Shown in pieces: positions 10,152 through 32,438 of a stretch of 59,878 nucleotides of DNA. Made by a program: the position numbers and the translations under genes. Under the pieces are notes generated by a model. The model worked only from the letters and a program-made list of their open reading frames with translations. It searched no databases and had not been told where the DNA came from. The DNA is from Bacilli bacterium (GTDB taxonomy: Bacteria > Bacillota_I > Bacilli_A > RF39 > UBA660), in assembly GCA_051872655.1 (NCBI GenBank), contig JBJEEB010000005.1, positions 1-59,878 of the forward strand, read 5' to 3'. Each line of letters opens with the position of its first letter. The first letter of the stretch is position 1.

Positions 10152-10529
10152 ATGGAGAAGGTTGCAGTATATGCTAGTTTCAAAAATCATAACAGACAAT
10201 CAATTGATTATTTTTTAAGGCAAATATCAGATTGGTGTCTTATGAAAAATTATGATTATACACTCTATTTTGATAAAGTTCAAAATCGATTGGATTTGAA
10301 TAGAAAAGAATTAAATAATTTGAAAGAAGACATTGAAAATAAAGAATATTCAAAAGTAATTATAAAAGACATAACTCAGTTATCAAGAAATACTATTTAC
10401 AATATAAATTTTTTACAATTTCTAGAAGATAATAATTGCAAAATAGAAAGTATGGATGGAACTGATTTGAATTTATATAAAAAGATATTTGATAGATTTA
10501 ACAAAAATAAGGAGGAAAGAGAAAGATGA
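10152..10529 (+). CDS. Stand-alone resolvase-like catalytic domain, probably inactive
   Basis: Serine-recombinase fold pattern (VAVYA..., RKELNNLKEDI, VIIKDITQLSRN), but YASFK replaces YxRVS and there is no DNA-binding domain. Confidence 0.65.
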   Translation: MEKVAVYASFKNHNRQSIDYFLRQISDWCLMKNYDYTLYFDKVQNRLDLNRKELNNLKEDIENKEYSKVIIKDITQLSRNTIYNINFLQFLEDNNCKIESMDGTDLNLYKKIFDRFNKNKEERER

Positions 10530-10939
10530 ATAACGAAGTTGAAAGAGAAGTAAAAAATTCAAAAAATAAATTTGAATTAGAAGGGAATGTTGCTAATATC
10601 AATGATATTTATACTAATCAAAATGGTAAAAAAATATTAAGATTTGATTTAGCCCAAAATAATAATGGGAATACACAGTTTGTTCCTATTGTATTAAGAG
10701 GAGAATTAGTAAACTCTTATGGTAATGAAATTCAAAAAGGAGATTGGATTTCTGTAAAAGGTAGAATATCTACTTATCAAAAAGATGTTGAAAGAGATGG
10801 TAAAACATATAAAGATAAAGCAATAGATATTCTTGGTTTTGAAATTACTGATAGAACAAATAATAAAGTTTATACTTCTGATGGTCAAGTTCATGAATTA
10901 ACAAATAAAGAAAAAAACCAAACAGAAATGGAAAGATAA
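10526..10939 (+). CDS. ssb: Single-stranded DNA-binding protein
   Basis: OB-fold pattern (LEGNVAN...RFDLA...FVPIV...KGDWISVKGRISTYQ). Confidence 0.8.
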   Translation: MNNEVEREVKNSKNKFELEGNVANINDIYTNQNGKKILRFDLAQNNNGNTQFVPIVLRGELVNSYGNEIQKGDWISVKGRISTYQKDVERDGKTYKDKAIDILGFEITDRTNNKVYTSDGQVHELTNKEKNQTEMER

Positions 10940-10942
10940 ATA

Positions 10943-11446
10943 ATGAAATATCAATATGAATTATTAAATTATTGGAATGACTCTGATGATTTATATGTTA
11001 ATTACATAGTAGAAGATTTAGAATCTCATAAGAAAGCAAATGTAATCAATTATTTTAATACTTCTGATATAGGTTGCAATTATAATACTGCATCAATAGA
11101 AGTAATAGAAAGTTCATTATATAAACTTATTAAAAAAAACAATGGTGTAGAATTTAATATGCCAAAGGTAAGTGAATTAAGCCCATTATTAAAATATGTA
11201 TATGACTGTGTATGTGATAGTGAATCAAATATGTGTCATATAGACTATAACGATTGGGAAGAATTAAAAGATTATAATGATTTTATCGAAGAAGATATTG
11301 CCACATTAAAGAAAGAAATTGATAAATATAATTTAGACGATTATATTACTATTGACGATGGAGAATATAAAATATGTGGTTATGGTGGATTACAATGTTG
11401 CTTTAATGATGATAGAGATAAAGGAAGTGATGAACTTGAAAGATGA
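10943..11446 (+). CDS. Acidic, Cys-rich hypothetical protein
   Basis: 167 aa; ends DELER. Confidence 0.7.
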   Translation: MKYQYELLNYWNDSDDLYVNYIVEDLESHKKANVINYFNTSDIGCNYNTASIEVIESSLYKLIKKNNGVEFNMPKVSELSPLLKYVYDCVCDSESNMCHIDYNDWEELKDYNDFIEEDIATLKKEIDKYNLDDYITIDDGEYKICGYGGLQCCFNDDRDKGSDELER

Positions 11447-12101
11447 ATTAAAAAAAGGTCAAGCATTCATAGGATTGGATGATAATAAATATTATTTTTT
11501 AGGATTTGATTATGATGACCAAATATTTTTCACAACATTGGATTTATGGAGTGATAAAGAACAGGGTTATATGTCAAAAAGTAATATATTTATAAAAGAA
11601 ATTTTAGATGAAAAATCTGATGTCATAGAAAATTGTACTTGGTATTATCAATCTATGAAAGAATTAGATAATTCATCTATGGAAGAAAAAATTAAAAGAT
11701 GTTTAGATATTATTAAAAATTCAAATACTAATGACTTTGAATTAAGACCTACTGAAATAGGTCCATTAGTTAGAGGACAAGCATATAGTAAGGAATTTAA
11801 TCAATATTATGAAGTTATTGGATTTATTGTTGATAATAATATTTATGTTGATGATAATTTAAAGTCGAAGCAAAAAGGATTTTTTGCAATATATCACTCA
11901 AATTGTGAAAGCACTGTACCATTAATATTTGAAAGAAATTTTAGTGATAAAGATAATTCTTTTGATGGTAAACATTTTGTTGCAGGTAATGATGATAGAG
12001 TTGATATAGAAGATATTATTTGTAATAAAGATTTAGTTGAATCTTATATGAATGATAATTTAATAGAAAGATTAGAAAATAATAAAGAAATGTCAAAATA
12101 A
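11430..12101 (+). CDS. Hypothetical protein
   Basis: Likely start is the ATG at 11430 after aagga, overlapping the previous stop (the ORF track starts at 11352). Confidence 0.65.
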   Translation: MNLKDELKKGQAFIGLDDNKYYFLGFDYDDQIFFTTLDLWSDKEQGYMSKSNIFIKEILDEKSDVIENCTWYYQSMKELDNSSMEEKIKRCLDIIKNSNTNDFELRPTEIGPLVRGQAYSKEFNQYYEVIGFIVDNNIYVDDNLKSKQKGFFAIYHSNCESTVPLIFERNFSDKDNSFDGKHFVAGNDDRVDIEDIICNKDLVESYMNDNLIERLENNKEMSK

Positions 12102-12131
12102 AAAATAACTGATGTTCTTTGAAAATTAGGT

Positions 12132-12245
12132 TAATAGCTACACATTCTAAAATGGTGTAGTGTTTATATTTTTAAAGGACAACTCTTTCTTGGAACTGTG
12201 TAGTTATTAATCAATGTTATTGATGATTACACAGTTCTTTTTTTT
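12132..12245 (+). promoter_or_regulatory. Attenuator-like leader: terminator 12193-12245 with an alternative antiterminator pairing
   Basis: gaactgtgta/tacacagttc stem + T8. taatagctacaca (12132-12144) is complementary to tgtgtagttatta (12197-12209) and its ctacac core also pairs with gtgtag (12155-12160). Confidence 0.7.
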
Positions 12246-12276
12246 ATGGCAAAAAACAAAAGAAAGGGTGAATATA

Positions 12277-12558: not shown

Positions 12559-12569
12559 GTATATACTTT

Positions 12570-13955
12570 ATGATGACAAAAGTTTTTGATTTATTAAGAA
12601 GTCTAGGTTGGTATGTAATTAGTTTTATATATGATTTAATAGATGGACTTTTACAAATAATAAAAAAATTAAATACTTTTGATATAATCAATTCACTATC
12701 TAATAATCAAACTTTTAGAAGTTTTTATACAGGAGTTATGGCAATAGCGGTAACATTATTTGCGTTGTTTATTATATGGAAATTTGTAAATAAACTTTTA
12801 GATCCAGATGAAGAAACAACTTTTAAAATGATAATAATGGAAATAGTAAAATGTGGAACGCTCATTATGATGTCCACATTTTTATTTGTTCAAGTATCAA
12901 ACTTTTCTATAACACTTTCAAATTATACAGGTAATATATTCGAAAGCAGTACAAATTCAAAAATGAGTGATTCAATGCTTACAATGTTTATATCGTATAG
13001 AGATGGTTATAAGAATAGTGATAAATTTAAAGAAGATAAAAGTATAGAACAATTAGTAACAAGTGGTTCTTTTGATAGTGACGAATTATATCTATCAAAG
13101 TATGTAACTAAATCACGAATAATATTATCTGATGAAAAAGATTATAAATATGATGTTAATTGGATTATGGCAATTATAAGTGGAGGATTCTTTTTATATA
13201 GTTTATTCTTTGCAGGAATTATGCTCGGTAGAAGACAAATAGAATTTCTATTTCTATTTTCAATATCTCCGATTGTATTTGCAACAAGTGTTTGTAATAA
13301 GCAAAGGAGAGGGGCAGTAATTGAACAACTTGTATCATTAGCACTTCAAAGTGCTGTTGTTATGTTGATAGTTAGTCTAACAGTTATGGTAATGCAAGAA
13401 ATTAATACAACAACTTTCTTTACTAATACATTTATGAATTTAACAACAAAATCACTTTTATATTTAGGTTGTGCTACATTTATATTAACAGGAAGTCAAG
13501 TTATTAATAGATTTATTGGTGCAAATGTAAGTGCAGCAAGTGGTAGAGAACAATTAATGTCATTAATGGGTTATGGAAAAATGGCAGGAATTGGAGCTAC
13601 TCTTGGAGCAGGAGCAGTAGTAGGAGGAAGTCTTTTAGCAACAGGTGGAGCAATGAAAGCAGGAAAAAGAGTTGGATCAGAGGTTTTATCACAGGCAGGA
13701 ATTGCACTTGGAACAATGGGAACTACCGGCGAGGGACAACCTCAAAGTAGAATGCAAAGATTTGCAACTGCTATGGGTAGTAGAATGTATGCAACAGGAC
13801 AACGAATGGGAAGAAAAACTGATTCTAATAAATTTAGTGCAAGTGATGCTTTCATTAATGCAGGTGCTAGTAGTTTAAATAATACTGTTCGAAAAGTAAT
13901 GCCACGAGCAAGTTATAATACTTCTTATTATAGAAGAAGAAATAATATGATATAG
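12570..13955 (+). CDS. VirB6/TrbL-like polytopic T4SS membrane protein
   Basis: Multiple TMs, RQIEFLFLFSISPIVFA motif, Gly/Ala-rich C-terminal tail. Confidence 0.75.
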   Translation: MMTKVFDLLRSLGWYVISFIYDLIDGLLQIIKKLNTFDIINSLSNNQTFRSFYTGVMAIAVTLFALFIIWKFVNKLLDPDEETTFKMIIMEIVKCGTLIMMSTFLFVQVSNFSITLSNYTGNIFESSTNSKMSDSMLTMFISYRDGYKNSDKFKEDKSIEQLVTSGSFDSDELYLSKYVTKSRIILSDEKDYKYDVNWIMAIISGGFFLYSLFFAGIMLGRRQIEFLFLFSISPIVFATSVCNKQRRGAVIEQLVSLALQSAVVMLIVSLTVMVMQEINTTTFFTNTFMNLTTKSLLYLGCATFILTGSQVINRFIGANVSAASGREQLMSLMGYGKMAGIGATLGAGAVVGGSLLATGGAMKAGKRVGSEVLSQAGIALGTMGTTGEGQPQSRMQRFATAMGSRMYATGQRMGRKTDSNKFSASDAFINAGASSLNNTVRKVMPRASYNTSYYRRRNNMI

Positions 13956-13967
13956 GAGGAATGAATT

Positions 13968-14270
13968 ATGTATATAACTGTAAAATCAATAAAAAGAAAT
14001 TTAGGATTTAAAGGTATAGAAATATCAGATATTGTTATTGCTTTACCAATAATAATATTATTTATAGTTTTATTTTGTTTTACTCCACTTAAAATACCTG
14101 CAATAGTAGGTTTAATGATAGGAATATTTTGTTTACTTCCTATCAATGTTAGTAAGAAAAATAGAATGTATAAAGTTATGGGACTTATATTTAAATTCTT
14201 AATAAAAGAAAAAATATATGTATATCAAAAGGAAGGAGAGGTGAGCAAAGTTGAAGAAAGAGAAAATTAG
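13968..14270 (+). CDS. VirB3/PrgI-like membrane protein
   Basis: Two TMs; position directly before VirB4. Confidence 0.6.
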   Translation: MYITVKSIKRNLGFKGIEISDIVIALPIIILFIVLFCFTPLKIPAIVGLMIGIFCLLPINVSKKNRMYKVMGLIFKFLIKEKIYVYQKEGEVSKVEEREN

Positions 14271-16761
14271 TAAAGAACAAAAAAGAATAAATAAAGAACA
14301 TAAAGTTATTGAGAAATTTATTAAGAAAAAAGATAAAATGAAGAAAAAATATATAACTAAAAGTGTTCTTAAAAGAAAGTTCAAAAATGCTCAAACTTTT
14401 AATAATGCAGAATTTGTAAATGCTGATGGAATTATAAAACTTCGAGATAATAGTTATGCAAGAGTATTTTCAGTAGATGCAATAGATTTATCTTTAACAT
14501 CAAATACACAAAAAAATAATTTTTTTAATCAACTTAAATATCTATATCAATTAAAAGACTTAAATTTAAGAATATATAAATTGGATGATAAAATTGATCT
14601 TAATGCAAACAAAGATTATTATACAAAACTAATAGAAGAATATTCTAACGATGAAGAAAAAGTCAAATTTTTAAAAGAAAGATATGATAGATTAGAATTA
14701 TTAGAAGAACAAAATTTAACAACTACAAGTAGATACTATTTTGTATTAGTAAGTGATAATGATAAAGCACTAGAACATATATCAGAAGAATTAAAAATGC
14801 ACTGTTATAATATGACACCTAGACTTAATGTTCAAACTATAACTAATAAATTAGAAGTATATCAATTTCTTGTTAATCTTTATTTATCTACTGCAAGTAT
14901 TGAACAATTAATGTGGAGTGATTTAGTAGAATTAATCTCTCCATTTTTTGTGCAAGAAAGTATGGGATATATAAAAGCAGATGAAGAAGAAATTCAAGTT
15001 GTTACAATAAAAAAAATACCACCATTTATTGATGAATTGTTTTTTGAAGAACTATTTAATGTTCCAGATACTAGAAGTTGTATTCATATAAAAGATACTA
15101 TTCCTACTGATGAATTAGTCAGAAGATTAGATAGTAATTATGAGTTTTTAATTTCTGAAAGAAGTACAACAAGGAAATTATCTGATGCAACCCAAATGGA
15201 TACTGAAAGAGAAAACTTTCAAGCACTTATGACTCAAATAAAAAATGGAGACGAAAAAATAAAAGAAGTAGATTTTATTGTCATAATAAATGGTACTAGA
15301 AAACAAAGAGAAGAAAAGATAAAGGAACTTAAAAAAATAGCAGATGTTTTTCATATAAAATTAGATGCTCCTCGTATGAGGCAAATGGAAGGTTGGCAGT
15401 CATTTGATATATCAAAAAATGGATTTGAAGATTACCATAATTATTTACCAAGTTTAACTCTTGCAGCATCTTTTCCATTAACAATTACACATTTTAATGA
15501 TGAAACAGGATATATGATAGGATCAGATATTCATACTGCATTACCTACAATATTTGACTTGTTTCATAAAGATGCGACAAGACCATCAAGTAATTTAGCA
15601 ATAATAGCATCCACAGGAGGAGGTAAAAGTTTTACTTTGAAGAAAATGATTATCAATGAAATTAATCGTGGAAATAAGTGCTTTTTATTTGATGCAGAGG
15701 GAGAATATGAAAAACTGATTAGAAAAAATAAAGGAGAATATATAGATATGTATTCTGCTAGTGGAGGTATAATAAATCCTCTGCAAGTTAGATTTCTTCC
15801 AAGTGATAAAGAAGAAAAAGAAGATAGTGAAGTAAATACAATTAATTATGAAGACTGTCCTCTTGCAAAACATCTTGGATCACTTGAAACATTTATTAAG
15901 TGTGCTTTTGAAGAAATAAAAGAAAGTGAAGTTGTTGTTATGCTTGATATGATAGAAAAATTATATAAAAGATTTGGTATAACAAAGAATACAAAAATAT
16001 CTAGTTTAGAAAAATTAGAAAATACAGATTATCCAATATTTTCAGATTTAATTGATTTCTTACCAGATTATCGTAATATGATTACTAATCCAGAACAATT
16101 AAAAATAGTTGATAAACTAGAAATATTATTAGATAGATTTAAAGTAGGAACTGATGCCATGTTATTTAATGGATATACATCAGTAAACCTTGACTCTAAT
16201 CTAATAGCATTTAATGTAAAAGATTTATTGTATAGTAAAAACAAAAGGATTATTACAACTCAATTAGTAAATTTATTAACTTATCTAAATAACATTATTG
16301 TAAGAAATAAGATTGTTAATGATAAGACAAAAAATAAAAAAAGAATTAAGAATATAGCAGTAATTGTTGATGAATTTCATTTGTATTTAAAAAATACTGA
16401 TAGTGAAGTTCTTTTAACATTTGAACAAATAGCTCGTAGAATTAGAAAATATCATGGAGCATTTATACCTGCAACACAAAGTATTCATGACTTTTTGGGA
16501 GATGATGATAGTGTTAGAAGTGCTACTGCAATATTTAATAACTGTCAATATCAATTAGTAGGTATGTTAAAAGAAGATGACCTAACTACATATTTAAAAT
16601 TGTTTTATCAAAATCCATTGACTGATACACAAAAAGAATTTTTGATGCAAGCAGAAATGGGAGAGTTCTTACTTACTATTAATTCTAAAAATAGAATCAG
16701 AGTTAAGATACTTGCAACACCTATTGAAGTTGACTTGATGGGAGAAGAACTTAAAGTATGA
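14251..16761 (+). CDS. virB4: VirB4-family conjugative ATPase
   Basis: Walker A ASTGGGKS, DAEGEY, Walker B IVDEFH, ARRIRKY, ATQSIHDF. Confidence 0.9.
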   Translation: MKKEKISKEQKRINKEHKVIEKFIKKKDKMKKKYITKSVLKRKFKNAQTFNNAEFVNADGIIKLRDNSYARVFSVDAIDLSLTSNTQKNNFFNQLKYLYQLKDLNLRIYKLDDKIDLNANKDYYTKLIEEYSNDEEKVKFLKERYDRLELLEEQNLTTTSRYYFVLVSDNDKALEHISEELKMHCYNMTPRLNVQTITNKLEVYQFLVNLYLSTASIEQLMWSDLVELISPFFVQESMGYIKADEEEIQVVTIKKIPPFIDELFFEELFNVPDTRSCIHIKDTIPTDELVRRLDSNYEFLISERSTTRKLSDATQMDTERENFQALMTQIKNGDEKIKEVDFIVIINGTRKQREEKIKELKKIADVFHIKLDAPRMRQMEGWQSFDISKNGFEDYHNYLPSLTLAASFPLTITHFNDETGYMIGSDIHTALPTIFDLFHKDATRPSSNLAIIASTGGGKSFTLKKMIINEINRGNKCFLFDAEGEYEKLIRKNKGEYIDMYSASGGIINPLQVRFLPSDKEEKEDSEVNTINYEDCPLAKHLGSLETFIKCAFEEIKESEVVVMLDMIEKLYKRFGITKNTKISSLEKLENTDYPIFSDLIDFLPDYRNMITNPEQLKIVDKLEILLDRFKVGTDAMLFNGYTSVNLDSNLIAFNVKDLLYSKNKRIITTQLVNLLTYLNNIIVRNKIVNDKTKNKKRIKNIAVIVDEFHLYLKNTDSEVLLTFEQIARRIRKYHGAFIPATQSIHDFLGDDDSVRSATAIFNNCQYQLVGMLKEDDLTTYLKLFYQNPLTDTQKEFLMQAEMGEFLLTINSKNRIRVKILATPIEVDLMGEELKV

Positions 16762-17869: not shown

Positions 17870-17917
17870 TACACTTTTAAAAAGTATTGGAAGCACAAAA
17901 AAAGAGGTTATTTTTAC

Positions 17918-18839: not shown

Positions 18840-19149
18840 AGTTGAAGATTATATTTATGATAGATTATTTCTTGTAGCAAAAGATAATTCTACTTCTACT
18901 AATAAAATTATTAATGCAATTATTGAAAAGTATATTAATGAGCCAAGAGAGATAAATTATTTAAAAGAAATAAATGAGAAGTTGCAAGAGCTAGTTGAAC
19001 TTGAAGATAAAATTGCAAAAAGACAATATAAACATTTTAGATTATCACAACAACACTTTGCTAACTTTGGTTATTTATCTAATGCAGACATTAAAGAAGA
19101 TAAATGTCTTAATGAGATTTTAAATAATAAGGACAATTTCAATGAGTAA
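18820..19149 (+). CDS. Second RHH relaxosome auxiliary protein
   Basis: KKLTVRVEDYIYDRLFLVAKDNSTSTNKIINAIIEKYI. Confidence 0.7.
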   Translation: MKKLTVRVEDYIYDRLFLVAKDNSTSTNKIINAIIEKYINEPREINYLKEINEKLQELVELEDKIAKRQYKHFRLSQQHFANFGYLSNADIKEDKCLNEILNNKDNFNE

Positions 19150-20506
19150 GAAAAGTCCGAAAGTAGTTTTTAAAAGTAAATATTGTTTAGCTCTTAACTC
19201 ACGAGATACTAAAAATAAATCTTTAAATTATAAAGAAGATAGATTAAAAGATATAGATGATATGGTTGATTACTTTTCTAATGAAAAGAAAAAGACAGTA
19301 GGTATGTTTGAATATTATATGGGACATACAAGAAAAGAAAAATATAATCTTATATTAGAAGATGGTAGTAGTGCCACTAAAAAAGATATTGCAGAAATTA
19401 AAACTAAATATAAAAAGTATATAGAAAATTCTAATTTGTGGAAAGGTATTTTAAGTTTTAAAAGAGAATATTTAGATGAAAACATTGATATTAAAACTTT
19501 GGAACAAAAAATAGCAAAAGAAGTAATGCCACAATTTTTAAAGTATTGTGGTTTTAAAGATATAAAAAATATGAGTTATGTTTTTTCGATTCATACAAAC
19601 AGAAAACATCAACCTCATATACATTTTGCTTTTGTAGAAAAGAAACCGAATTTTATATGTGCTAATAATAAAATAGGATATAGAAGAAAAGGTAAAATTA
19701 GTATTGATGAACAAAACTATTTAAAAAGATTAGTTGAACTTGCCATTGAAAGAGAAAAGTATTATACACCACTTTTAAAAAAGACTAATGAAGATATTGA
19801 TTATTTAAAATCATATTTTAATCCAAAAGAAAGAAACTTTACTTTAAGAAATGTTAGTGAGATATATATTGAGGAAGATATTTTAAAACTTGGAGAGTTA
19901 GTAAAACAATATAGGGAACATAATAATCAAACTTCTAAAAAAATAAAATATAATTCAATTAAGAATGATGAACTTGGCAAAGAAATTAAATCTTTAACAA
20001 GAAAAATTAAAAAATATTTGTTTAGTGATGATACATCTATTTTGTATGCTAGTAAGAAAGATATAAATAAAGATTTAGAAAAATTAAATGATTACTTTGA
20101 TGAATTAAATAGAAATAATAATATTGAAGAACTAACGGCTAATAATATTATCGTTAATAAAAAGCAAGAATATATAGATAATTATATTTATAATTCAATA
20201 GTAAATCATTCATTATATAAATATGAGCATATATCAATGGTTGTAAAAAATAAAAATAATATTGATAAGATTACTTTTGAAGATTTAATACAAGAAGTTG
20301 CTTATCAAAATAGTAAAAGAAATAAATACTCTGATAAGCAAAGAAGAAAAATTGTATTAGATAATTATTTTAAGGGTAATAGTAATATGACAAAATTTCC
20401 TAGTAAGCATAAAATGGAAAAAGCATTAAAGAATATTAATTATGAAATGGAAAAAGCATCGCAAGAATTTAGTAAATTATTTAATTATGATGTTAAAGAT
20501 AAATGA
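19142..20506 (+). CDS. MobL-type relaxase
   Basis: SPKVVFKSKY, EYYMG, LWKGILSF and IHTNRKHQPHIHFAFVE (HUH) motifs. Confidence 0.8.
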   Translation: MSKKSPKVVFKSKYCLALNSRDTKNKSLNYKEDRLKDIDDMVDYFSNEKKKTVGMFEYYMGHTRKEKYNLILEDGSSATKKDIAEIKTKYKKYIENSNLWKGILSFKREYLDENIDIKTLEQKIAKEVMPQFLKYCGFKDIKNMSYVFSIHTNRKHQPHIHFAFVEKKPNFICANNKIGYRRKGKISIDEQNYLKRLVELAIEREKYYTPLLKKTNEDIDYLKSYFNPKERNFTLRNVSEIYIEEDILKLGELVKQYREHNNQTSKKIKYNSIKNDELGKEIKSLTRKIKKYLFSDDTSILYASKKDINKDLEKLNDYFDELNRNNNIEELTANNIIVNKKQEYIDNYIYNSIVNHSLYKYEHISMVVKNKNNIDKITFEDLIQEVAYQNSKRNKYSDKQRRKIVLDNYFKGNSNMTKFPSKHKMEKALKNINYEMEKASQEFSKLFNYDVKDK

Positions 20507-20556: not shown

Positions 20557-20576
20557 GTTTAAAAATGGAGGTTGAA

Positions 20577-22076
20577 ATGAAAAAAGTTTATATGTGTATA
20601 GATTTAAAAAGTTTTTATGCCTCTGTTGAATGTATTGAAAGAGGTTTAGATCCTTTAAATACTAATTTAGTGGTTGCAGATGAAAGTAGAACAGAAAAAA
20701 CTGTTTGTCTTGCAATAACACCAAGTTTAAAACAATATGGTCTAGGAGGTAGAGCAAGACTTTTTGAAGTCATTCAAAAAGTTAAAAGTATTAACTATGA
20801 AAGAAGAAAGAATAATAATTATAAAAAATTTAATTCGAAATCATTTTTTGATAGTGAACTAAAAAAAGATAGAACATTGGAATTAGATTTTATAATTGCT
20901 CCACCTCAAATGAAAAAATACATGAAATATAGTACCAATATTTATAAAATATATTTAAAATATTTAGCACCAGAAGATATTTTTGTTTATTCAATAGATG
21001 AAGTTTTTTGTGATATAACTACTTATTTAAGTATGTATCAGATGACAGCAAAAGAATTAGTTTCTAAAATAATAAAAGATGTTTATGATACAACTGGAAT
21101 AACTGCAACTGCCGGAATAGGAACTAATATGTATTTGGCAAAAGTATGTATGGACATAGTTGCTAAACATGCAGAACCTAATGAAATTGGTGTTAGAATT
21201 GCAGAACTAAACGAGATGTCATATAGAAAATTATTATGGAATCATAAGCCATTAACATCATTTTGGAGAGTTGGCAAAGGTATAGCAGATAAATTAGAAA
21301 AGAATGGATTATATACTATGGGAGATGTTGCAAGATGTTCTTTAAATAACGAAAATTTATTATATAAATTATTTGGAGTAAATGCAGAATTATTAATTGA
21401 TCATGCTTGGGGTTGGGAACCGACAACAATAAAAGAAGTTAAAGCATATAAACCCGAAAGAAATAGCATATCTTCTGGACAAGTTTTACATTGTCCATAT
21501 AAATATGAAAAAGCTAAATTAATTGTTAGAGAAATGATAGACTTATTATCATTAGATTTAACTGATAAGCATTTAGTTACAAAGCAATTAGTATTAGATA
21601 TAGGTTATGACATTGAAAATTTAAACAATCCTTTAATCAAAAAATTGTATAATGGAGAAATAACAATAGATAATTATGGAAGAGAAGTTCCTAAACATTC
21701 TCATGGAACGATAAATTTGGATTACAATACTTCTTCATCAAAAGTCCTATCAAAAAAATGTATTGAATTATATGATAGAATAGTAAATAAAAATTTATTA
21801 ATTAGAAAAATAAATATTACTGCTTGTAATATAATTGATGAAGATATAGTAAAAAAAGAAGTAGTCCATGAGCAATTAAATCTTTTTTCATCAAGTGATG
21901 ATTCTGAACAGGAAATTGAAGATAAAAAAAGACAAAAAGAAGATAATAAATTACAACATGTTTTATTAGATATTAAAAATAAATATGGAAAAAACTCTAT
22001 CTTAAAAGGTATGAACTTAGAAGAAGGTGGAACAACAATTGATAGAAATAATCAGGTTGGAGGTCATAAAGGATAA
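20577..22076 (+). CDS. Y-family DNA polymerase (UmuC/UvrX-like)
   Basis: CIDLKSFYASVEC, YSIDEVF, GIGTNMYLAK; start after RBS ggagg. Confidence 0.9.
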   Translation: MKKVYMCIDLKSFYASVECIERGLDPLNTNLVVADESRTEKTVCLAITPSLKQYGLGGRARLFEVIQKVKSINYERRKNNNYKKFNSKSFFDSELKKDRTLELDFIIAPPQMKKYMKYSTNIYKIYLKYLAPEDIFVYSIDEVFCDITTYLSMYQMTAKELVSKIIKDVYDTTGITATAGIGTNMYLAKVCMDIVAKHAEPNEIGVRIAELNEMSYRKLLWNHKPLTSFWRVGKGIADKLEKNGLYTMGDVARCSLNNENLLYKLFGVNAELLIDHAWGWEPTTIKEVKAYKPERNSISSGQVLHCPYKYEKAKLIVREMIDLLSLDLTDKHLVTKQLVLDIGYDIENLNNPLIKKLYNGEITIDNYGREVPKHSHGTINLDYNTSSSKVLSKKCIELYDRIVNKNLLIRKINITACNIIDEDIVKKEVVHEQLNLFSSSDDSEQEIEDKKRQKEDNKLQHVLLDIKNKYGKNSILKGMNLEEGGTTIDRNNQVGGHKG

Positions 22077-22868: not shown

Positions 22869-23103
22869 AAAGGAATTGGAAAAGTCTGATTATTTTTTTG
22901 ATGGTGAGATAGAACAAATAATAACTATCGTTAGAAAAGCATTAAATAAGTATATTCATGATGAAAAAATAATTAGCAGAAAAGATAAACTTTTAAAAGT
23001 GATAGAAAAATATTTAATAAAGATAAGAGTAATTATAAAAAGAATATCTTTTAAAAAAAGATCAGTAGAGGAGGAAAACGATGAACACATTAGAAATGTA
23101 TAA
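22840..23103 (+). CDS. Basic hypothetical protein
   Basis: Likely start ATG at 22840 after ggagg. Confidence 0.55.
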   Translation: MKEKLVKEIKKELEKSDYFFDGEIEQIITIVRKALNKYIHDEKIISRKDKLLKVIEKYLIKIRVIIKRISFKKRSVEEENDEHIRNV

Positions 23104-23419
23104 AAGATTATCAGATGAGGATAAATCTCATTTAACAGTGTATTGTATTTACGATAGCATTTACGATGTTGCAAGAAATAATAATATAGAAATTAGTGAT
23201 GAACTTGCTATGAATATTCAAGAACTTGCTCATGATTTGTATCTTGAAGATGAATATATGAATTTATCTGCATCACAAATTGCTTTCTTTTTAACAGAGT
23301 GTTATACAAAAGATAATACATTTATGGATAAAGTAGAAGATATGGATTACGATGACATATTACAAGCAGTTGAAGATAATAATCATGAATTTTATATTGA
23401 AGAAGAAATGGAAAGGTAG
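23081..23419 (+). CDS. Highly acidic small protein (DNA-mimic candidate)
   Basis: About 29 D/E vs 7 K/R in 112 aa; ends EEEMER. Confidence 0.7.
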   Translation: MNTLEMYKRLSDEDKSHLTVYCIYDSIYDVARNNNIEISDELAMNIQELAHDLYLEDEYMNLSASQIAFFLTECYTKDNTFMDKVEDMDYDDILQAVEDNNHEFYIEEEMER

Positions 23420-23429: not shown

Positions 23430-23705
23430 ATGGATTTTACAAAGTTAAATGTTGAGTTTGCTAATATGCAAAATACTATTACTAAGTATAATAATATTTT
23501 GAATGAAATAAAGAATAGAATTAAAAACAATTTAAGAGATATTAGTAAATATGAAACAAAAATAAAAAATACAAAGAATAATTTAGAAAAAGAGAGTTAT
23601 AAAATACTAGTTATTTCATTAAAAAATGAAACTTCATTTTTAGAAAATATTATAAAGGAGGATGAACAAAATGAACGAGAAACAGGGGTTACTAAAACAG
23701 TATAA
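23430..23705 (+). CDS. Coiled-coil hypothetical protein
   Basis: Heptad-like pattern, 91 aa. Confidence 0.6.
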   Translation: MDFTKLNVEFANMQNTITKYNNILNEIKNRIKNNLRDISKYETKIKNTKNNLEKESYKILVISLKNETSFLENIIKEDEQNERETGVTKTV

Positions 23706-24069
23706 TGAAGAAGAAATTAAGCAATTACTTAAAGATAAAGTAAAAATGGTTTATATTGATAATGGAAGTGAAGAATTTGTAGCAAGATATGATGATTTAC
23801 CAGACATTATCGTAGATGTAAACGAAAAACTTGGACATACTGAAAATTTAAAGGTATATGATTTTGAAAATCCAATTGCATATAAACCGATTTTAACAAC
23901 AATAGGTTATTTTTTAGATAAATGTGATCCAGAGATAAGAAAAGATATAATAGATAGATTAGTTGGATTACAAAAAGGAGAAATTGAAGTAAAAGATTAT
24001 AAGGTAATTGATGAAGATATGTTAGATGATGTAAGAATTGCTATGGAAAAAGAAGAAATGGATAGATAA
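23662..24069 (+). CDS. Acidic hypothetical protein
   Basis: RBS ggagg upstream; ends KEEMDR. Confidence 0.65.
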   Translation: MNKMNEKQGLLKQYNEEEIKQLLKDKVKMVYIDNGSEEFVARYDDLPDIIVDVNEKLGHTENLKVYDFENPIAYKPILTTIGYFLDKCDPEIRKDIIDRLVGLQKGEIEVKDYKVIDEDMLDDVRIAMEKEEMDR

Positions 24070-24071
24070 TT

Positions 24072-26045
24072 ATGTCAATGATATATATAGTTATTTTAGT
24101 TTTAGTGGCTTTAATAATTATATTTTTGTATTTTATTGAGCCACTAATAACTAGGCAAAAAATAAAAGATAATAATGAGCATGGTAGTGCAAGATGGGCT
24201 ACTAAACAAGAAATAGAAAAGCATTTTAGAAAAGAGCAAATAAGTCATATTGTAAAAAGTGGATTTCCTGTATATTATTCAAAGGATAATAGATATGTAT
24301 GGTTTGATATGGAAACACCACATTGGATTTATTTAGGTTCCACAGGAAGTGGCAAAAGCGCTACTGCAGTAATTCCTGAATGTAGCTTTATTGCTACTGC
24401 TGAAAATAAAAAAAGTGTTTTTATTACAGATCCAAAAGGAGAAATATTTTCTACAACAAGTAAAATGTTTAAAGACAATGGTTATCATGTGTTTACATTG
24501 GATTTTAGAAATCCAGAATTTTCTAATCATGCTAATTTATTAGAAACTGCAATTAATGAATATGAATTGTATGATAAAAATGAGAAATTGAGTGAACAGG
24601 AAAACGATGAGAAATTAAAAATTAAGTATAAAAATGAATCAATAACACATTTTGCACAATGTAATCAAATAGTAAATGATATATGTACTATGATTATGTC
24701 AGATAAAACTGCAAAAGAGGCATTTTGGAATAATAGTGCAAGTGATTTGTTATATGGAATCATTTTTTTATTTTTGGAAGATTATGCTGATGGAAAAATT
24801 AAAAGAGAACAAATTACTTTAACTTCAATGAAAAAATTTCAAAATAGTTCAATGACTGAAAAGAATATTAAAGTATTAAGAAAATATGTGGAGGCAAAAC
24901 CTTATGGTTATAGAAGTAAAGATAAATTAATACCAATTATATCTACTAGTGAAAATACATATAAGAGTATTACTTCAATTTTTAATGAAAGAATGACTTT
25001 ATTTGATGATGTAAATGTAGAAAATATAACATCAAATTCAGATTTTGATTTTGATATTTTAGGAAAAGAGCCATCGGTGTTATATTGTTGCATACCTGAT
25101 GAATCAAAAATATATTATACACTCGTATCGGTAGTAGTTTCCTTAGTATATAAAAGATTAGTATTATTATGTAATATGCAACCAAATAAAAAACTACCTA
25201 CTGAACTTGTATTTTTACTTGACGAGTTTGCAAATACTCCACCACTACAAGACATTGAAACGATAGTATCAGTAGCTAGAAGTAGAGGTATGTATTTTCA
25301 ATTCTTTTTACAAAGTTTTGCCCAACTAGATAATTTGTATGGTAAGGAAGTTAGTCAAATAATTCAAGATAACTGTGGTTTGGCTTATCTTAAAACAAAT
25401 ACACAAGAAACTGCGGAAGCAATTAGTTCTAGATTAGGTACTCATGGAGTTGAGACTACTTCATTAAATTATTCAATGAGTTTTTTAAATAATAATGGTA
25501 GTAAGGGAACAAGTCTTATTTCTAGAAGATTATTAACTGCTGATGAAATTAAACAATTACATTACAAGACAATTATCTTTCCAACAATAGGTTACCCAAT
25601 TTTTCGTGATACTGTTATTTATCAAAAATTTAGTTGTTATAAAAAAGGTTATGTTGAAAGAAATATAAGACCACTTGAAAGATTAGTTGATACTTACTAT
25701 ACAGTAGAACAGTTGAAGTTTGAAGATAAAAATAGTAATCAAGAGCCAAAACTAAATACTTATGAATCACAAATGAAAACAAGGTTAGTATCCATTATAA
25801 ATGAAGTAATAAAAATATTTGGGAAAATAGATTTTAATGTAGAATATACAAAAGAAAATAATAATATAATTGCAGAGTTATATTTAGCACCACCATTATC
25901 AATCAATGATTTAAAAGGACTTGAAGAATTAAGTAGTAAATTAGATTTTGGATATAATGCCATATCTGATAAAGAAAAAGTTAATAGAAAAAATAGAAAC
26001 TCTTTAATAGAGATTTTTTTAAATGATAGAGAAAAAGAAATGTGA
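24072..26045 (+). CDS. virD4: VirD4/TraG type IV coupling protein
   Basis: N-terminal TM, HGSARWA, Walker A GSTGSGKS, DPKGE, LLDEFAN, ARSRG. Confidence 0.9.
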   Translation: MSMIYIVILVLVALIIIFLYFIEPLITRQKIKDNNEHGSARWATKQEIEKHFRKEQISHIVKSGFPVYYSKDNRYVWFDMETPHWIYLGSTGSGKSATAVIPECSFIATAENKKSVFITDPKGEIFSTTSKMFKDNGYHVFTLDFRNPEFSNHANLLETAINEYELYDKNEKLSEQENDEKLKIKYKNESITHFAQCNQIVNDICTMIMSDKTAKEAFWNNSASDLLYGIIFLFLEDYADGKIKREQITLTSMKKFQNSSMTEKNIKVLRKYVEAKPYGYRSKDKLIPIISTSENTYKSITSIFNERMTLFDDVNVENITSNSDFDFDILGKEPSVLYCCIPDESKIYYTLVSVVVSLVYKRLVLLCNMQPNKKLPTELVFLLDEFANTPPLQDIETIVSVARSRGMYFQFFLQSFAQLDNLYGKEVSQIIQDNCGLAYLKTNTQETAEAISSRLGTHGVETTSLNYSMSFLNNNGSKGTSLISRRLLTADEIKQLHYKTIIFPTIGYPIFRDTVIYQKFSCYKKGYVERNIRPLERLVDTYYTVEQLKFEDKNSNQEPKLNTYESQMKTRLVSIINEVIKIFGKIDFNVEYTKENNNIIAELYLAPPLSINDLKGLEELSSKLDFGYNAISDKEKVNRKNRNSLIEIFLNDREKEM

Positions 26046-26060
26046 AAGAAGGTGTAAAAA

Positions 26061-29000
26061 GTGAATAACAAATTTATAAATGAATACTTTGAAACAAGAG
26101 ATAATACTTTACGAGATATACAAAGTAGTTCATATAATTGGAATAAGTTTATTACTTATTGGTCAAAAATATTAGATAAATATAGCGTTGATAATGTTTT
26201 AAATCTGTATTCTTATAATTCAAGTGGAAGAACTTTTATGACTTTTGATGAATGGAATAGCGAAGAAGTTGATAGAAGAATAAAACCTAAAAGTAAAGGA
26301 ATACCAATAATTGAAGATGATCATAAAATATATGTATTTGATATTAGACAAACTTATGGAAAAGATTATAAGCTATGGAATTATAATCATTATGTAGATA
26401 AGTCAATACTTAATTATTATCAATTTAGTGTTGACATTATAAATGATGATAATAAAACAATAAATGAAAATTTTTATGATACCTTCTATGAAATATCGTT
26501 AAAACAAATAATGAATAATTATATGACTATGTCAGAAGAAGAAGTGGAGTTTGTTGCTAAAACAATGACTTCACTTTTTTTATCAAAGTCTAACTTTAAT
26601 ATATATAATCTTCCGAATTCTTATGAAATGTTAGAAGAAATGGATACAGATGATATTTTAAAATGTATGCAAATTGCTAATAAGGAAACTGCAATTATAT
26701 ATAAAGATTTTGTAGAAAAAACAAATAGTCTTGAATCAGTTCAAAATTATATTCAAAGTAATGTATTATTTCAGTTTAAAGATGGTAAATATTTTAATGA
26801 AGAAGAAAAACAAAACTTTTTATCTGGTATAGAAAATAATACTTTCTTTAACAATAAATTTTTAGAAAATATTTATGATAGTTATGTTAATAAGTATGAA
26901 CATTCATTTAAAAGAAAAGTTGATAAAGTTGAAAATATTATTAGTTTTGATAAAGATAAAGTTTATATAAATAATGAAGAAGTTAGTGAAGAAGAATTTG
27001 ATAATGCATTTGAAGAAATTGAAGAAGAACATTTTAATAATGAAAATAATCTAAATGTTATAAATAAAAATAACTATGTAGAACAAATGTCTCTATTTGC
27101 CCCAAGAGAAGAAGAACTAGCAAGTAAGATTTGCGATATATTTAATTCTTTTGACACTAAATATCAAAATACATTTGAAGTACATAATGTTGAATTACAA
27201 AGATGGGAACATATATCAAGTAAAAAAAGAAATCTTACAATATTATTAAAAAGTTCATTAATAGATAGTTTAGCAGATAGAGAAAATAGTTTTACATATT
27301 TTAATACTGATAAAACTGATGAAAAGAAACTTAATGAGGGATTATTAAATAATGCTTTTATTCAGTCATTATATAAAGATAAAGATTTTTCAATTTCTTT
27401 TACACCAGATATGATACATATATATTGGCATAACTTTGATGACAAGCAATTTGATATGTCTATTCCAAGTACTAAATTAATAAATCAAGATGAAATAGAT
27501 AGTAAAGAATTAGAACAAATAGATAAAGAAGTTTCTAATATTACTGATGATGTAATTGATTATAAAGTAACTACTGCTGAAATAATACCAACTCGTAATG
27601 GTATAGAAACTAATGTTATAGAAGAACATAGTTATAACAGTAATGGAGAAGAAGTAAAAGAAAAATATCCACCAATTAATTATCATATTAGTGATGATAA
27701 AATTGATACAAGTTTTGGTGCTAAATCAAGATTTGAAGATAATATAAAAGCAATAGAACTCTTAAAAAAATTAGAAAATGAAGATAGAAATGCAACCGAA
27801 GAAGAACAAGAAATTTTATCTCGTTATGTAGGTTGGGGTGGAATTGCTGATGCTTTTGATGAAAGAAAAGAAAATTGGAAAGAGGAAAGAGAGAAATTAA
27901 AATTACTCTTAAATGAAGAAGAATATAAAGCAGCTGCACATTCAACATTATCTTCTTTTTATACTCCAAATATAGCAATAGATGGGATTTATAAAGCATT
28001 AAAACAATTTGGATTTGAAAAAGGAAATGTTTTAGAGCCAAGTTGTGGTATTGGTAATTTTTTTGGAAGACTTCCTAGTGAGTTTGATAAATCTAAATTA
28101 TATGGTGTCGAGTTAGATAGTATAAGTGGAAGAATTGCTAAAAAACTTTATCCAAATGCTAAAATAGAAATAACAGGTTATGAAGATTCAAAGGTTGCAG
28201 ATAATTTATTTGATATTGCAATTGGTAATGTACCTTTTGGAAGTAATACTGTATATGATAAAAGATATAAAGATAGATTTTTAATTCATGATTACTTTTT
28301 TCAAAAAACATTAGATAAAGTAAGAGATGGAGGAATTATTGCTTTTATTACTACTGATGGGACACTTGATAAGAAAGATACAAGAGTAAGAGAATACATT
28401 GCAAAAAGAGCAGAATTTTTAGGAGCAATAAGATTACCTAACAATACATTTACAGGAAACGCAAATGCCAAAGTTACATCTGATATTATTTTTTTGAAAA
28501 AGAGAGATGAATTAAAGTTAGATATAAGTGATGAAAGTTGGATATATACGAGTGAATATGATGATGGAATTACAATAAACAATTATTATATTGATAATCC
28601 AAATATGATGCTTGGTAAAATGGAAACAACAACTCATTTTGATATGGCGACTTGTATTCCATTTGAAGATAGAGATATAAATGTTTTAATGAATCAAGCA
28701 ATAGAACATCTACCAACTAATATATATGAGCAAAGTAGTTTTATAGAAAATAATGATACTAATTATGAAGTATTAGATGCAGATGATAGTCTTAAAAATA
28801 ATGCTTTTACTGTAATAAATAAAGATGGTAAAGACATTATTTATCAAAGGTCATTTTCAAGTTTAGTACCATACAGTATTCAAGATGGCATGACTGCTAA
28901 AAGAATTATTGGTTTGTGTAAAATTAAAGATGCTTTAAGAGAAGTATTTAATATACAACTTCGAGATGGAAGTGATGAAGAATTAAAATTTGCACAAGAA

Positions 29001-32000
29001 ACATTAAGTAAAGAATATGATGATTTCAATAAAAGATATGGTTATATTAATGATAGTGTAAATGCACGAGCATTTGATAGTGATCCAGATTATTATTTGC
29101 TTACTTCTATTGAAAATAAAATTAGTAAGGATGAAGAAGATGATAAACCTAAATATGAAAAGGGAGATGTCTTTACTAAAAGGACAATAAGAAAAAGCAA
29201 AACTATTACAAGTGCTGAAAACGCTGAACAAGCATTAAGGTATTCTCTTAATAATCGTGGTTGTGTTGATTTTGAATATATGAAAACATTATATCCAAAA
29301 GAAGATAATGAAATTATAGAGGAGTTAGATAATTTAATATATCAAGATCCAGCAAAGATAAATGATTTTAATAATGGATGGGTAATTGCTAGTGAATATT
29401 TAAGTGGTAATGTAAAGCAAAAACTTAATTATGCTAAATCAGTAAATGAAGATAATAAGTTTGATAAAAATATTGAGGCATTAGAAAAAGTACAACCTAT
29501 ACCACTTGAATATGATGAAATTAGTGTAAAATTAGGTTCAACTTGGATTCCAGAAGATGTCTATCATGAGTTTTGTTGCGAACTTTTAGATATACCAAAA
29601 TATAATAGAAGTTATTTGAAAATAAAATATGCAAAAGAAGTAAATACTTGGTTATTTCAAGCAAGTGGATTATATGGTTATGGTGTAAAAAATACTAATA
29701 CTTGGGGAACTGATAGAGCAGATGCTTTATCAATAATAAAGAATACTCTTAATCTTCAAAGTATAACTATTTATGACAAATTAGAAGATGAAAGACGAGT
29801 TGTAAATCCAATTGAAACTGCTAATGCAAGAGAAAAACAAGAGGCAATAAAACAAGAATTTAAAGAGTGGATTTGGAAAGATGAAGATAGAAGAAATAGA
29901 CTTGTTAAACTATATAATGAAAATTTTAATTGCATGAGAGAAAGGGAATTTGATGGAAGTCATTTAACATTCGATGGAATGAATCCCAATATAGAATTAC
30001 GACCTCATCAAAAAGATGCAGTAGCAAGAGTTTTGTATGGAGGTAATACATTACTTGCTCATGCTGTTGGTGCAGGAAAAACTTATGAATGTATTGCAAG
30101 TGCTATGGAATTGAAAAGATTGGGAATTGTAAGTAAGCCAATGTTTGTTGTCCCTAATCATTTATTAGGACAATGGGCAAATGAAGTTTTAAAATTGTAT
30201 CCTACTGCAAATATTTTAGTAGCAACTCAAAAAGATTTTGAAAAAACTAGAAGAAAAAAACTAATGGCAAGAATTGCAACAGGAGAATGGGATGCAGTTT
30301 TAATTGCTCATTCTAGTTTTGGTTTAATTCCAATGAGTAAAGAATATGAAAAGAAACATATTGAAAAAGAAATAGAAGAAGTTGTTAGTGCCATTGAAAG
30401 AATAAAAGCAGAATCAGGTGATGGTTTAAGTGTAAAGAAACTTGAACAAATAAAAACGAGTATGGATACTAAATTAAAAGTATTATTAGATGCACCGAAA
30501 GATGATGTTGTTACATTTGAAGAATTGGGAGTAGATGAACTAATAGTAGATGAGGCACATATGTTTAAAAATCTTCCAATGTTTTCAAAAATAAGAAATG
30601 TTGCAGGTATAAATAACAGTGAATCTAAAAAAGCAACTGACTTGTTTATGAAGATAAGTTACATATTAGAAAATAATGGTGGTAAAGGTGCAGTATTTGC
30701 AACAGGTACTCCAATTTCAAACTCTATGGGAGAATTATTTGCAATGCAAAAATATCTTCAAATTGATAGATTAAGAGAAATGGGATTAGAACATTTTGAT
30801 GAGTGGGCTTCAACATTTGGAGAAGTAGTTAATAGTTTTGAAATTGCACCAGACGGTAGTGGTTTTAGAACAAAAGCAAGATTTGCTCAATTTTTTAATA
30901 TTCCTGAACTTATGACTTTATTTAAAGAAGTAGCTGATATTAAAACATCAAAAATGTTGGATTTACCTGTTCCTAAATTAAAAGGTGGAGATTATAAAAC
31001 AATAGTTGCTCCTAAAAGTGTTGAATTAGGAGAATATGTAGATAAACTTGCTGAAAGAAGTGAAATAATTAGAAATGGTTGTGATCCACGAATTGATAAT
31101 ATGCTTTTAGTAACAAACGATGGAAGAAAAGCAGCACTCGATTTAAGAATGATAGATCCGAATATGCCAGACTTACCTAATTCAAAAATTAATTTAGCAG
31201 TAGAAAATATTTATAGAATATGGTTAGAAAATAAAGAGGACAAGTTAACGCAACTTGTCTTTTGTGATTTATCAACACCAAAGAATGATGGTACTTTCAA
31301 TGTATATGATGACATTAAGAATAAGTTAATTCAAAAAGGAATACCAGAAGATGAAATAGAATTTATTCATAATGCAAAAACTAATCCTCAAAAATTAAAA
31401 TTATTTGAAGATATGAGAAATGGAAATAAAAGAATTTTAATAGGTTCAACTTCTAAAATGGGAGCCGGAATGAATGTTCAAGATAAATTAATTGCTCTCC
31501 ATCATCTTGACTGTCCATGGCGACCAAGTGATATTGAACAAAGAGAAGGAAGAATTTTAAGACAGGGAAATCAAAATGAAGAAGTAGAAATATATAGATA
31601 TGTAACCGAAGGTAGTTTTGATGCCTATTCATATCAATTAATTCAAACAAAATCAACTTTTATAAATCAAATAATGGCAAACTCAAATGGTGGTGGAAGA
31701 ACTGCTGAAGATTTGGATAGAGATACACTTACTTATGCAGAAGTTAAAGCACTTGCAAGTGGTAATCCATTGATATTAGAAAAATTTAAAGTTGAAAATG
31801 AATTAAAACAATTATATTTATCAAAAAGTAGATATGATAGATCACATATTGAACTAGAATCAAAATATAACAGAGAATTGCCAAGACAATTAAAATATCA
31901 AAAACAATATTTAACAGGTTTAGAAGAAGATATCAAAAAAGTGGAAGATTTATCTGCTGATAATTTTAAGATAATTATAAGAGATCAATTTTTTAATTCT

Positions 32001-32438
32001 AGAAAAGATGCTAGTACAAAATTTTACCAATCGTTATCTTTATTAAAGACAGGAGAAGAAATCAAAATAGGAGAGATAAGTGGATTTGATATAATTGGTA
32101 CACGAGAAGAACTAAGGTTTACTCCTGTTGTTTATATTAAGGGTATTGGTAAATATAAGGTTGAAATAAACAACATGGATGAAATAGGTAATATTTTAAA
32201 ATTAGAAAATATGCTCAAAAGTTTTGATAATAAAATAAATACTGTTAAAGAGCAAATCGCCTATACTGAAAAACAACTTGTAGATGTAAAGGAAGAACTA
32301 GATAAGCCATTTGCAAGTCAAGAAAGAATACGAGAATTACAAAAAGAAAAAGCACGAATTGATAGTGAGCTTGATTTAGATAAACAAGAAAACACAAGAG
32401 AAATAGAAGAAAATAATGAAGAAGAAATAGAAAGATAA
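26061..32438 (+). CDS. DarB-like ArdC-N / N6-adenine methyltransferase / SNF2 helicase fusion
   Basis: N-terminal YSxxNxL...TFDEW...R.IK.KSKGI.I (ArdC-N-like); [11 protein letters not shown] and GNVPF MTase motifs; [13 protein letters not shown] and [11 protein letters not shown] helicase motifs. Confidence 0.9.

Follow-up and report, generated by a model that had tools for sequence, protein, structure and literature searches.

The SSB protein docks its partners through a C-terminal tip, D-D-D-I/L-P-F, and phage T7 gp2.5 and gp4, which are unrelated to each other, share an acidic C-terminal tail. P1 DarB is delivered together with DNA, in Legionella RalF a hydrophobic residue near position -3 is reportedly important for the signal, and for Gram-positive conjugation systems we know of no established substrate signal. 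Conjugation systems do have C-terminal translocation signals, those of the VirB/D4 and F types being positive or hydrophobic, and the substrate signals of conjugative type IV secretion systems (T4SSs) are poorly defined, with the F-type ones known only as trends in charge and hydrophobicity (PMC11288057). The T4SS of F and pED208 translocates SSB, ParB, PsiB, and other maintenance proteins, and F TraD contacts TraM through a short acidic C-terminal tail that links relaxosome and coupling protein (PMC8406263). The Dot/Icm coupling complex binds Glu-rich C-terminal signals, the E-block being bound by DotM (PMC5802825). Here we analyze a 59,878-nt stretch of DNA (the window; contig JBJEEB010000005.1, assembly GCA_051872655.1) from an uncultured Bacilli bacterium of the RF39 lineage (UBA660), which carries an integrative and conjugative element (ICE), and describe a tail, E-x-[E/D]-R-stop, that ends six unrelated proteins of this ICE and is very probably a selected C-terminal short linear peptide motif.

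The tail has likenesses to each of these systems and is identical to none. As with the Legionella Dot/Icm signals, it is C-terminal and Glu-rich, with a hydrophobic residue near the end, and the last ~20 residues of the ICE proteins have this composition (e.g., the linker and tip MEKEEMDR). The E-block, however, is loosely defined by its composition and lies 10-17 residues before the end, whereas the ICE tail is a fixed terminal tetrapeptide ending in Arg, and Dot/Icm serves a Gram-negative pathogen as a type IVB effector system; general Pfam and NCBIfam scans of the examined proteins turned up no DotM-like domain, no search having been aimed at DotM. In Agrobacterium VirB/VirD4 and F, C-terminal residues confer recognition by a VirD4-type receptor, and the F cargo includes SSB. 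The ICE tail shares with them a terminal location on soluble proteins (offset 0 only, on six carriers without transmembrane segments), but five of the six carriers have a negative rather than a net positive or Arg-rich C terminus, and the VirB/VirD4 and F signals are without a discrete consensus, whereas the ICE tip is a defined motif. The acidic tail of F TraD belongs to the coupling protein; here the end of VirD4 is not the motif, and the tip is found on accessory proteins.

Results

Six Unrelated ICE Proteins Share a Terminal Tetrapeptide

A first-pass annotation of the window had reported the tail on six named open reading frames (ORFs), and all six end exactly as it described: on the + strand between 10152 and 32438, the carriers terminate, in order, in ERER, EMER, ELER, EMER, EMDR, and EIER. 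We built a position-specific null from the C termini of 222 tail-less family representatives (window and related loci), which puts the rate at 6.3e-4 per ORF; the 61 ORFs of the window should then hold 0.038 cases, and with six seen (P(>=6) ~4e-12), chance origin was rejected. Over the window and loci L001-L028, E.[ED]R is found at 57 ORF termini vs. 45 times in 136,000 internal positions, and it sits at offset 0 from the ORF end, being essentially absent at offsets 1-15. None of 61 unique host ORFs, a small background retrieved by a ribosomal protein S15 look-up that represents one redundant host region, ends in the strict tail (an exact look-up of the host PNPase matched nothing). Of the 20 matches to the DNA 18-mer GAAGAAATGGAAAGATAA in IMG/VR, 18 do not coincide with the stop of a real ORF, and the string thus does not tend to end genes in general.

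The tail is confined to a subset of the soluble ICE proteins, as the annotation had proposed. All six carriers lack transmembrane segments, and the tail is missing from the proteins with membrane segments (including the membrane T4SS subunits), VirB4, the adhesin, the sortase, the relaxase candidate, a UmuC-like polymerase, the regulators, and the recombinase; in the related loci described below, the strict tail was not found on structural T4SS proteins, the relaxase, or VirD4. Two further proteins had been listed with degenerate tails, the 11430 protein (KEMSK) and VirD4 (REKEM). These ends are present in the sequence, but in relatives they are not the motif, the 11430 family ending in E/D-M-S-K and the VirD4 family variably in EKEM, EKEI, SKLV, VKNE, or IFLN, and we do not treat the two proteins as members. 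Over their last 15 residues, five carriers have net charges of -1, -3, -6, -3, and -5, and only the resolvase-like protein is positive (+2).

This resolvase-like protein (10152-10529, 125 aa, ending ...KEERER, tail at 10515-10529) consists of a Pfam Resolvase N-terminal domain only and was rightly called dead, a Lys replacing the catalytic Ser (YASFKN aligned to YARVST of the ICE serine recombinase). Its tail (E-R/K-E-R) is the weakest and most ambiguous of the set and may be coincidental, because it has no hydrophobic residue at -3 and its DNA, AAG GAG GAA AGA GAA AGA TGA, holds a perfect AAGGAGG Shine-Dalgarno (SD) site (-11.1 kcal/mol) and overlaps the start of the SSB gene through ATGA; relatives of the protein terminate in EEKER. 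The ICE SSB follows (10526-10939, 137 aa, ...QTEMER, tail at 10925-10939), and then an acidic protein of 167 aa and pI 4.2 (10943-11446, ...SDELER, tail at 11432-11446), for which no Pfam family was found and an AlphaFold2 (AF2) model made without an alignment reached a pLDDT of only 39. The gene of this acidic protein and the next gene, which starts at ATG 11430 or TTG 11436, share 11-17 nt. In this region (11414-11446) an extended and almost perfect SD, AAAGGAAGTGAT, precedes TTG 11436 by 8 nt, and this TTG rather than ATG 11430 may be the true start of the next gene.

The other carriers lie further along the + strand. An acidic protein of 112 aa and pI 4.1 (23081-23419, ...EEEMER, tail at 23405-23419) precedes another acidic protein encoded directly upstream of VirD4 (23662-24069, ...KEEMDR, tail at 24055-24069), whose likely start at 23671 gives 132 aa; in the AF2 model of the latter (pLDDT 84) a C-terminal helix spans 118-134, and Foldseek retrieved no similar structure from the PDB. 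By sequence, the 10943, 11430, 23081, and 23662 proteins had no match in the PDB, NCBIfam, or PHROGs. After the VirD4-type coupling protein (24072-26045; Pfam T4SS-DNA_transf, TraG-D_C, and TrwB_AAD_bind), the last gene of the operon (26061-32438) encodes a 2125-aa DarB-like methyltransferase/SNF2-helicase antirestriction protein (...EEEIER, tail at 32424-32438) that matches the PHROG "DarB-like antirestriction" family at E=0. The earlier labels of SSB, VirD4, and DarB-like protein are thus borne out, the first of them by the Pfam SSB domain.

The Tail Recurs on 11 Families of Related ICEs

We collected 28 related ICE loci, from metagenome-assembled genomes of uncultured gut Bacilli, by a homolog search with the 23662 protein and a genome scan, 13 further close loci by a metagenome scan with the DarB-like C terminus, and six more, covering the first gene cluster, by look-up of an SSB homolog. 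The resulting 47 loci and the window contain 823 ORFs in 234 families, and the strict tail ends 94 of these ORFs, from 11 unrelated families: the six of the window, a 132-aa protein located after the relaxase (fam27), a 186-281-aa protein located after the DarB-like gene and encoded by an operon-terminal, uncoupled gene (fam36, which was fam26 of the first clustering), and three other small-protein families. Near-variants (NKMER, EQMER, ENYER, EGLER, DDLER) indicate that the core is hydrophobic-Glu-Arg after acidic residues. In the 23081 family (33 members, close set) the strict tail is present in 22 and a looser form in 29, with the variants DEMER, EEMER, DEIER, EELER, ENYER, and EGLER, and for the 23662 protein, which has 362 homologs, EMER or EMDR ends 113 of the 120 listed. 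As read from these sequences, the motif has two parts, an acidic linker that varies and, after it, the tip [E/D]-hydrophobic(M/L/I)-[E/D]-Arg-COOH.

One locus departs from its relatives: in L003 (9374-10399) the 23081 homolog is shortened (...SQIAFF), and the 23662 homolog ends in QDEKEK rather than EMER, yet the AAGGAAAA SD is kept. The DarB-like protein of the same locus retains EKEMER.

The ICE Tip Takes the Place of the SSB C-Terminal Tip

Among 120 SSB homologs (82-99% identity, 133-139 aa), the linker is variable in sequence and length and the tip is fixed, being EMER (78), EMVR (34), EIER, or DLER. We looked for distant SSBs by an exhaustive search of representatives at 50% clustering. 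Those at 42-50% identity end in x-E-R (REEMER, KNEMER, SEEQER, EKEQER, NVIYER, NNDMER), and more distant ones end in the canonical D-L-P-F or DDDF, D-L-P-F appearing only below ~38% identity. The ICE tip occupies the position of the canonical tip through which SSB interacts with other proteins, which argues that it is a docking peptide. Both the ICE proteins and the SSB and T7 gp2.5/gp4 tails have a variable disordered linker and then a short acidic/hydrophobic tip at the extreme C terminus, and a conserved tip after a variable linker is found in the ICE SSBs (EM[EV]R) as in the DarB-like proteins (below). The ICE tip is, however, E-M/L/I-E-R rather than acidic residues and hydrophobic-Pro-Phe-COOH; it ends in Arg (Leu in a second lineage), not Phe, and occurs on at least 11 families, some of them without a DNA-processing signature. 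One SSB homolog (P0246, 133 aa) ends in ...NEMERENGKGR, where EMER is followed by a six-residue extension, a natural non-terminal tip.

Ribosome-Binding Sites Overlap the Tail but Are Not Its Cause

In five of the six window carriers the next start lies within -17 to +10 nt, and the tail codons overlap ribosome-binding sites (RBSs). We computed SD energies on the assumption that the 3' end of the host 16S rRNA carries the Firmicute anti-SD. For the ordinary SDs of the element the energy is -9 to -16 kcal/mol; AGAAAUGGA, the tail RNA, pairs at -6.3 to -6.5 kcal/mol at +2/+3 junctions (the SD encoded by the 23662 tail reaching only -6.3), and GGAAAGGUAGGU at -13.8 kcal/mol at a +10 junction, where AGG TAG G at the end of the 23081 gene is the SD of the 23430 gene. 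Codon choice follows spacing: in 27/28 unique junctions (from at least five families) with the next ATG at +0 to +4, ATG encodes the hydrophobic residue and a moderate SD is formed, and in 12/15 junctions with the next start at +5 to +11, Arg is encoded by AGG with TAG-G or TAA-GG after it. Four coupled DarB-like lineages have ATG GAG AGA, or ATG GAG CAT-TGA with an overlapping start. The coupled-junction tails resemble embedded SDs in pairing with the anti-SD at the right distance, but differ in that coupling neither needs the tail nor is needed for it. Pairing of this kind ahead of a downstream start is absent for the DarB-like gene of the window and for 14 uncoupled variants of it.

The overlap is real in coupled junctions, but it is a secondary overlay that does not account for the tail: DarB-like and fam36 genes have the tail without being coupled, coupled junctions without a tail exist, and synonymous sites are at background. 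That no coupled gene follows the DarB-like ORF, as the first-pass annotation had argued, is confirmed for the window: no + strand ORF of at least 20 aa starts in the 117 nt after its stop, and no terminator was found after the gene. The intergenic region (32439-32555, + strand) instead holds a palindrome, TTTTTTGCAAAAAA (32450-32463), and a -35-like element, CTCTTGCAAAATT (32465-32477), so the DarB-like stop is not translationally coupled. Among uncoupled DarB-like ends, 12 of 14 distinct variants retain [ED]-M/L/I-E-R after a variable linker; over the 14, the hydrophobic residue is L in six, M in six, and I in one, and the -2 codon is always GAA. These proteins are more alike in the tip (amino acid identity 0.67, and 0.86 at both -2 and -1) than in the 12-residue linker (0.34) or upstream of it (0.63), and at the nucleotide level identity falls from 0.82 (tip) to 0.55 (linker) and 0.47 (downstream). 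Conversely, at least 11 other junctions of the same operons are tightly coupled yet tail-less, structural T4SS genes among them.

The 68 unique tails use codons as the background does (GAA 86% vs. 85%, AGA 78% vs. 77%), and the same holds for their stops (TAA/TAG/TGA 60/28/12 vs. 60/25/14). One tail Arg is coded CGA, and the hydrophobic codons ATG, TTA, CTT, and ATA differ by 2-3-nt changes that keep the residue hydrophobic. Background usage of synonymous and stop codons speaks against conservation at the RNA rather than the amino acid level, and, with the uncoupled tips, contradicts the idea that the tail is conserved solely as the RBS of the next gene.

In related loci the same palindrome and -35-like sequence follow whichever tail-bearing gene is last. 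A second copy of CTCTTGCAAAATT is located at 5898-5910, upstream of the gene at 6005, and the palindrome and -35-like element may be a promoter/operator common to the ICE operons.

A Second Lineage, in Clostridia, Has Its Own Tip

Two distant matches of the metagenome scan (L048 and L049, 36% G+C), extended by homolog search and three contig look-ups, led to a second ICE lineage from Clostridia (Fusibacter and relatives, 36-39% GC), the VirD4 of which is 28% identical to that of the window. Unrelated proteins of this lineage share a different tip, [DE][DE]-M/I-E-L (L048 5453-7396 and 11839-12288; L146, L147, and L149, e.g., L147 2247-14559). A primase-like DUF3991-Toprim protein ends in ...EEEMEL; RadC in ...DEEMEL, DDEMEL, or DEEMEM; the DarB-like protein in ...NDEDMEL (with a terminator hairpin after the gene), DDEEMTV, or DDTIEI; and a 149-aa protein encoded just upstream of VirD4 in ...DDGIEL, and DUF6075 has EEMEL three residues from its end. 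A tip-bearing gene is found immediately upstream of VirD4 in both lineages, though the two proteins are non-homologous, and the relaxase has no tip in either. The downstream SDs of the second lineage lie 3' of the stop codon (TAG GAGG, TGA AAGGAGG, TGA GGTGAT), which excludes RBS overlap there.

Across Clostridia, DUF3991-Toprim homologs (P0292-P0411, homologs of L048 6434-7396) end in an acidic run and then a clade-specific hydrophobic tip: EEEMEL, E[ED]ELLISQ, PPDEYELG, EEDEYECSL, EE[ED]LAI, or EEECMV. A family of gut ICEs of 44% GC (L050-L114, with a DarB-like protein 35% identical) was rejected as independent evidence of tip sharing, its E-Q/V-E-L tails being almost confined to the DarB-like family. 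The DarB-like proteins of this family (e.g., L089 5457-7109) end in ...KKKHEQEL when uncoupled and in ...HKKGEVEL where an ATGA overlap is present, a tip that is conserved but of another kind, with basic rather than acidic residues before it.

Context of the Element and Its Host

The window has ~25% G+C and a strong purine skew on the + strand, and the ICE spans roughly from 2.7 kb to a large serine recombinase at its end (33709-35451), which is without the tail. A 454-aa protein, also without the tail (19142-20506), had been labeled a MobL relaxase; it gave no Pfam, NCBIfam, or PHROG match at the thresholds used, and we call it a relaxase candidate on the basis of position and conservation only. 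Between its gene and the small tail-bearing genes lies a UmuC/ImpB-type Y-family polymerase homolog (Pfam IMS and IMS_C; 20565-22076), likewise without a tail. In locus L034, a 439-aa SLFN/AlbA_2-HATPase-MarR-type gene (13579-14898) stands within the T4SS operon after the VirB6-like gene; the gene, which neither the window nor the sister loci have, may have been inserted there as a defence or cargo function.

Host genes past the ICE include a P-type ATPase, a LysR regulator, GerA spore-germination genes, ScpAB, RuvB, S15, and PNPase, and tRNA-Met and tRNA-Leu (38696-38869) are found ~3 kb past the serine recombinase. From its GerA/GerAC germination genes (45737-49416), the host probably forms spores. 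Rfam and tRNA scans of the tail region had no matches, and 10000-33000 had no relatives among plasmids by megablast, the sole match being 300 bp at 73% identity; the closest plasmid VirD4s are only 25-30% identical to that of the window.

Discussion

The tip is short, strictly terminal, lineage-specific, and shared by many unrelated soluble proteins, and it therefore points to one common receptor, which we infer to be encoded by the element. The leading mechanism, which we favor only tentatively from the analogies above, is that the tail is a recruitment signal for the T4SS, with VirD4 or a VirD4-bound factor as the putative receptor, much as the first-pass annotation had suggested. At least 11 unrelated soluble accessory proteins (SSB, the DarB-like protein, and small acidic proteins among them) would have acquired a tip that binds the coupling protein or a factor bound to it; the tagged proteins would be recruited to the conjugation channel and delivered into the recipient with or alongside the single-stranded DNA, where they would protect and establish the element. 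At tightly coupled junctions, the tip codons have been adapted to serve also as the SD site of the next gene. Recruitment is plausible because the carriers (SSB, ParB-like, primase-like, and antirestriction proteins) resemble the proteins translocated by F-type and other conjugation systems (PMC8406263, PMC11288057), because the second lineage has a tip of its own, and because the tip stands at the position of the SSB tip, and it is favored by the tip-bearing gene directly upstream of VirD4 in both lineages. Both the identity of VirD4 as the receptor and the translocation of the carriers are our inference, and other receptors are equally compatible with the data.

Several observations weigh against such recruitment. 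The relaxase, the canonical and obligatory T4SS substrate, has no tip, and the tip is acidic, unlike the positive or hydrophobic C-terminal signals of VirB/D4-type and F-type systems. Only 61 unique ORFs make up the host background. The evidence that uncoupled genes retain the tip is of limited evolutionary depth, DarB-like homologs being only 12-17% diverged over their last 300 residues. Finally, no common tail was found in the Clostridioides difficile pLS20-like plasmid pCd5_2, one of the plasmids with the nearest VirD4s and with a VirD4 from the same broad family; the feature thus belongs to certain lineages and is not universal. A wider reading, possible but advanced with more reserve than recruitment itself, is that in Gram-positive VirD4-type conjugation a discrete, lineage-specific C-terminal peptide code selects the protein cargo that moves with the DNA. 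The code would consist of an acidic linker and hydrophobic-Glu-Arg in Bacilli ICEs, or hydrophobic-Glu-Leu in the Clostridia family, and the cargo would comprise SSB, DarB-like, primase-like, RadC, ParB-like, and small acidic proteins.

The main rival to T4SS recruitment, which we judge the less likely of the two, is that the tip docks its carriers onto some hub that is not the coupling protein, in the manner of the SSB C-terminal tip or of the T7 gp2.5 and gp4 tails, and that no protein is translocated: SSB, the DarB-like protein, the primase-like protein, and others would be assembled on the relaxosome, on single-stranded DNA, or on each other, either in the donor or in the recipient after expression. 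Such a hub would account well for the replacement of D-L-P-F in SSB at the same position after a variable linker, for the DNA-processing character of the second-lineage carriers (Toprim/primase-like, RadC, ParB-like, and DarB-like), and for the acidic run and clade-specific hydrophobic tip that end all the clostridial DUF3991-Toprim homologs, and a relaxase without a tip would suit the role of receptor. It accounts less well for the several carriers that are small, acidic, and without a DNA-processing signature, and for the placement of a tip-bearing gene directly upstream of VirD4 in both lineages though the two proteins are non-homologous. We found no prior description of such a hub in Gram-positive conjugative DNA processing, with a tip that replaces the C-terminal tip of SSB.

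The remaining explanations are much less likely than either recruitment or hub docking. A C-terminal degron or protective cap, read by a host protease and setting the lifetime of the ICE accessory proteins, is improbable: C-degrons too are short and strictly C-terminal, and the tips differ between lineages living in different host classes, but no host ORF among the 61 bears the tip, there is no likeness to known ClpXP or SsrA-type C-degrons, and charged C termini generally stabilize proteins. More improbable still is a by-product of translational coupling, in which the RNA (the SD-like AGAAAUGGA, or GAAAGG, with stop and start) would be conserved and the amino acids incidental. The proximity of the next start in five of six carriers, pairing of -6.3 to -13.8 kcal/mol at the right spacing, the preference for ATG at -3 or for AGG according to distance, and the ATG GAG AGA of coupled DarB-like genes all fit it, but tips kept by uncoupled genes already contradict it, as do the many tail-less coupled junctions of the same operons, background synonymous and stop-codon usage, SDs placed after the stop in the second lineage, and an 18-mer that is not at ORF ends in viral contigs. 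The least credible account is a relic of module shuffling, an unselected junction of ~15-21 bp (GAAGAAGAAATGGAAAGATAA) spread by recombination between cassettes. The DNA of unrelated tails is alike over 15-21 nt, gene order varies by locus, and the same type of downstream gene (MNLKDEL...) follows different tail-bearing genes; against this, the tail is always in frame and always terminal, nucleotide identity is higher in the tip than in the linker or downstream, uncoupled tails are retained and not decaying, the hydrophobic codon varies by 2-3 nucleotides, and the second lineage has a different tip.

Full-text literature searches found no description of such a terminal consensus, an absence that is not proof of novelty. 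The junctions offer a clean example of dual coding, with a peptide motif and a Shine-Dalgarno site on the same codons. With a receptor other than VirD4, too, a shared docking tip in place of that of SSB would define a hub. A four-residue consensus would give a sequence-readable marker of the proteins that an element co-ordinates or co-delivers, would help to find anti-defence and establishment factors among small acidic proteins, and, being only four residues long, would give a simple experimental lever. If the peptide code is true, the co-transferred "conjutome" of an element might be readable directly from sequence, and its specificity might be swappable via the last residue.

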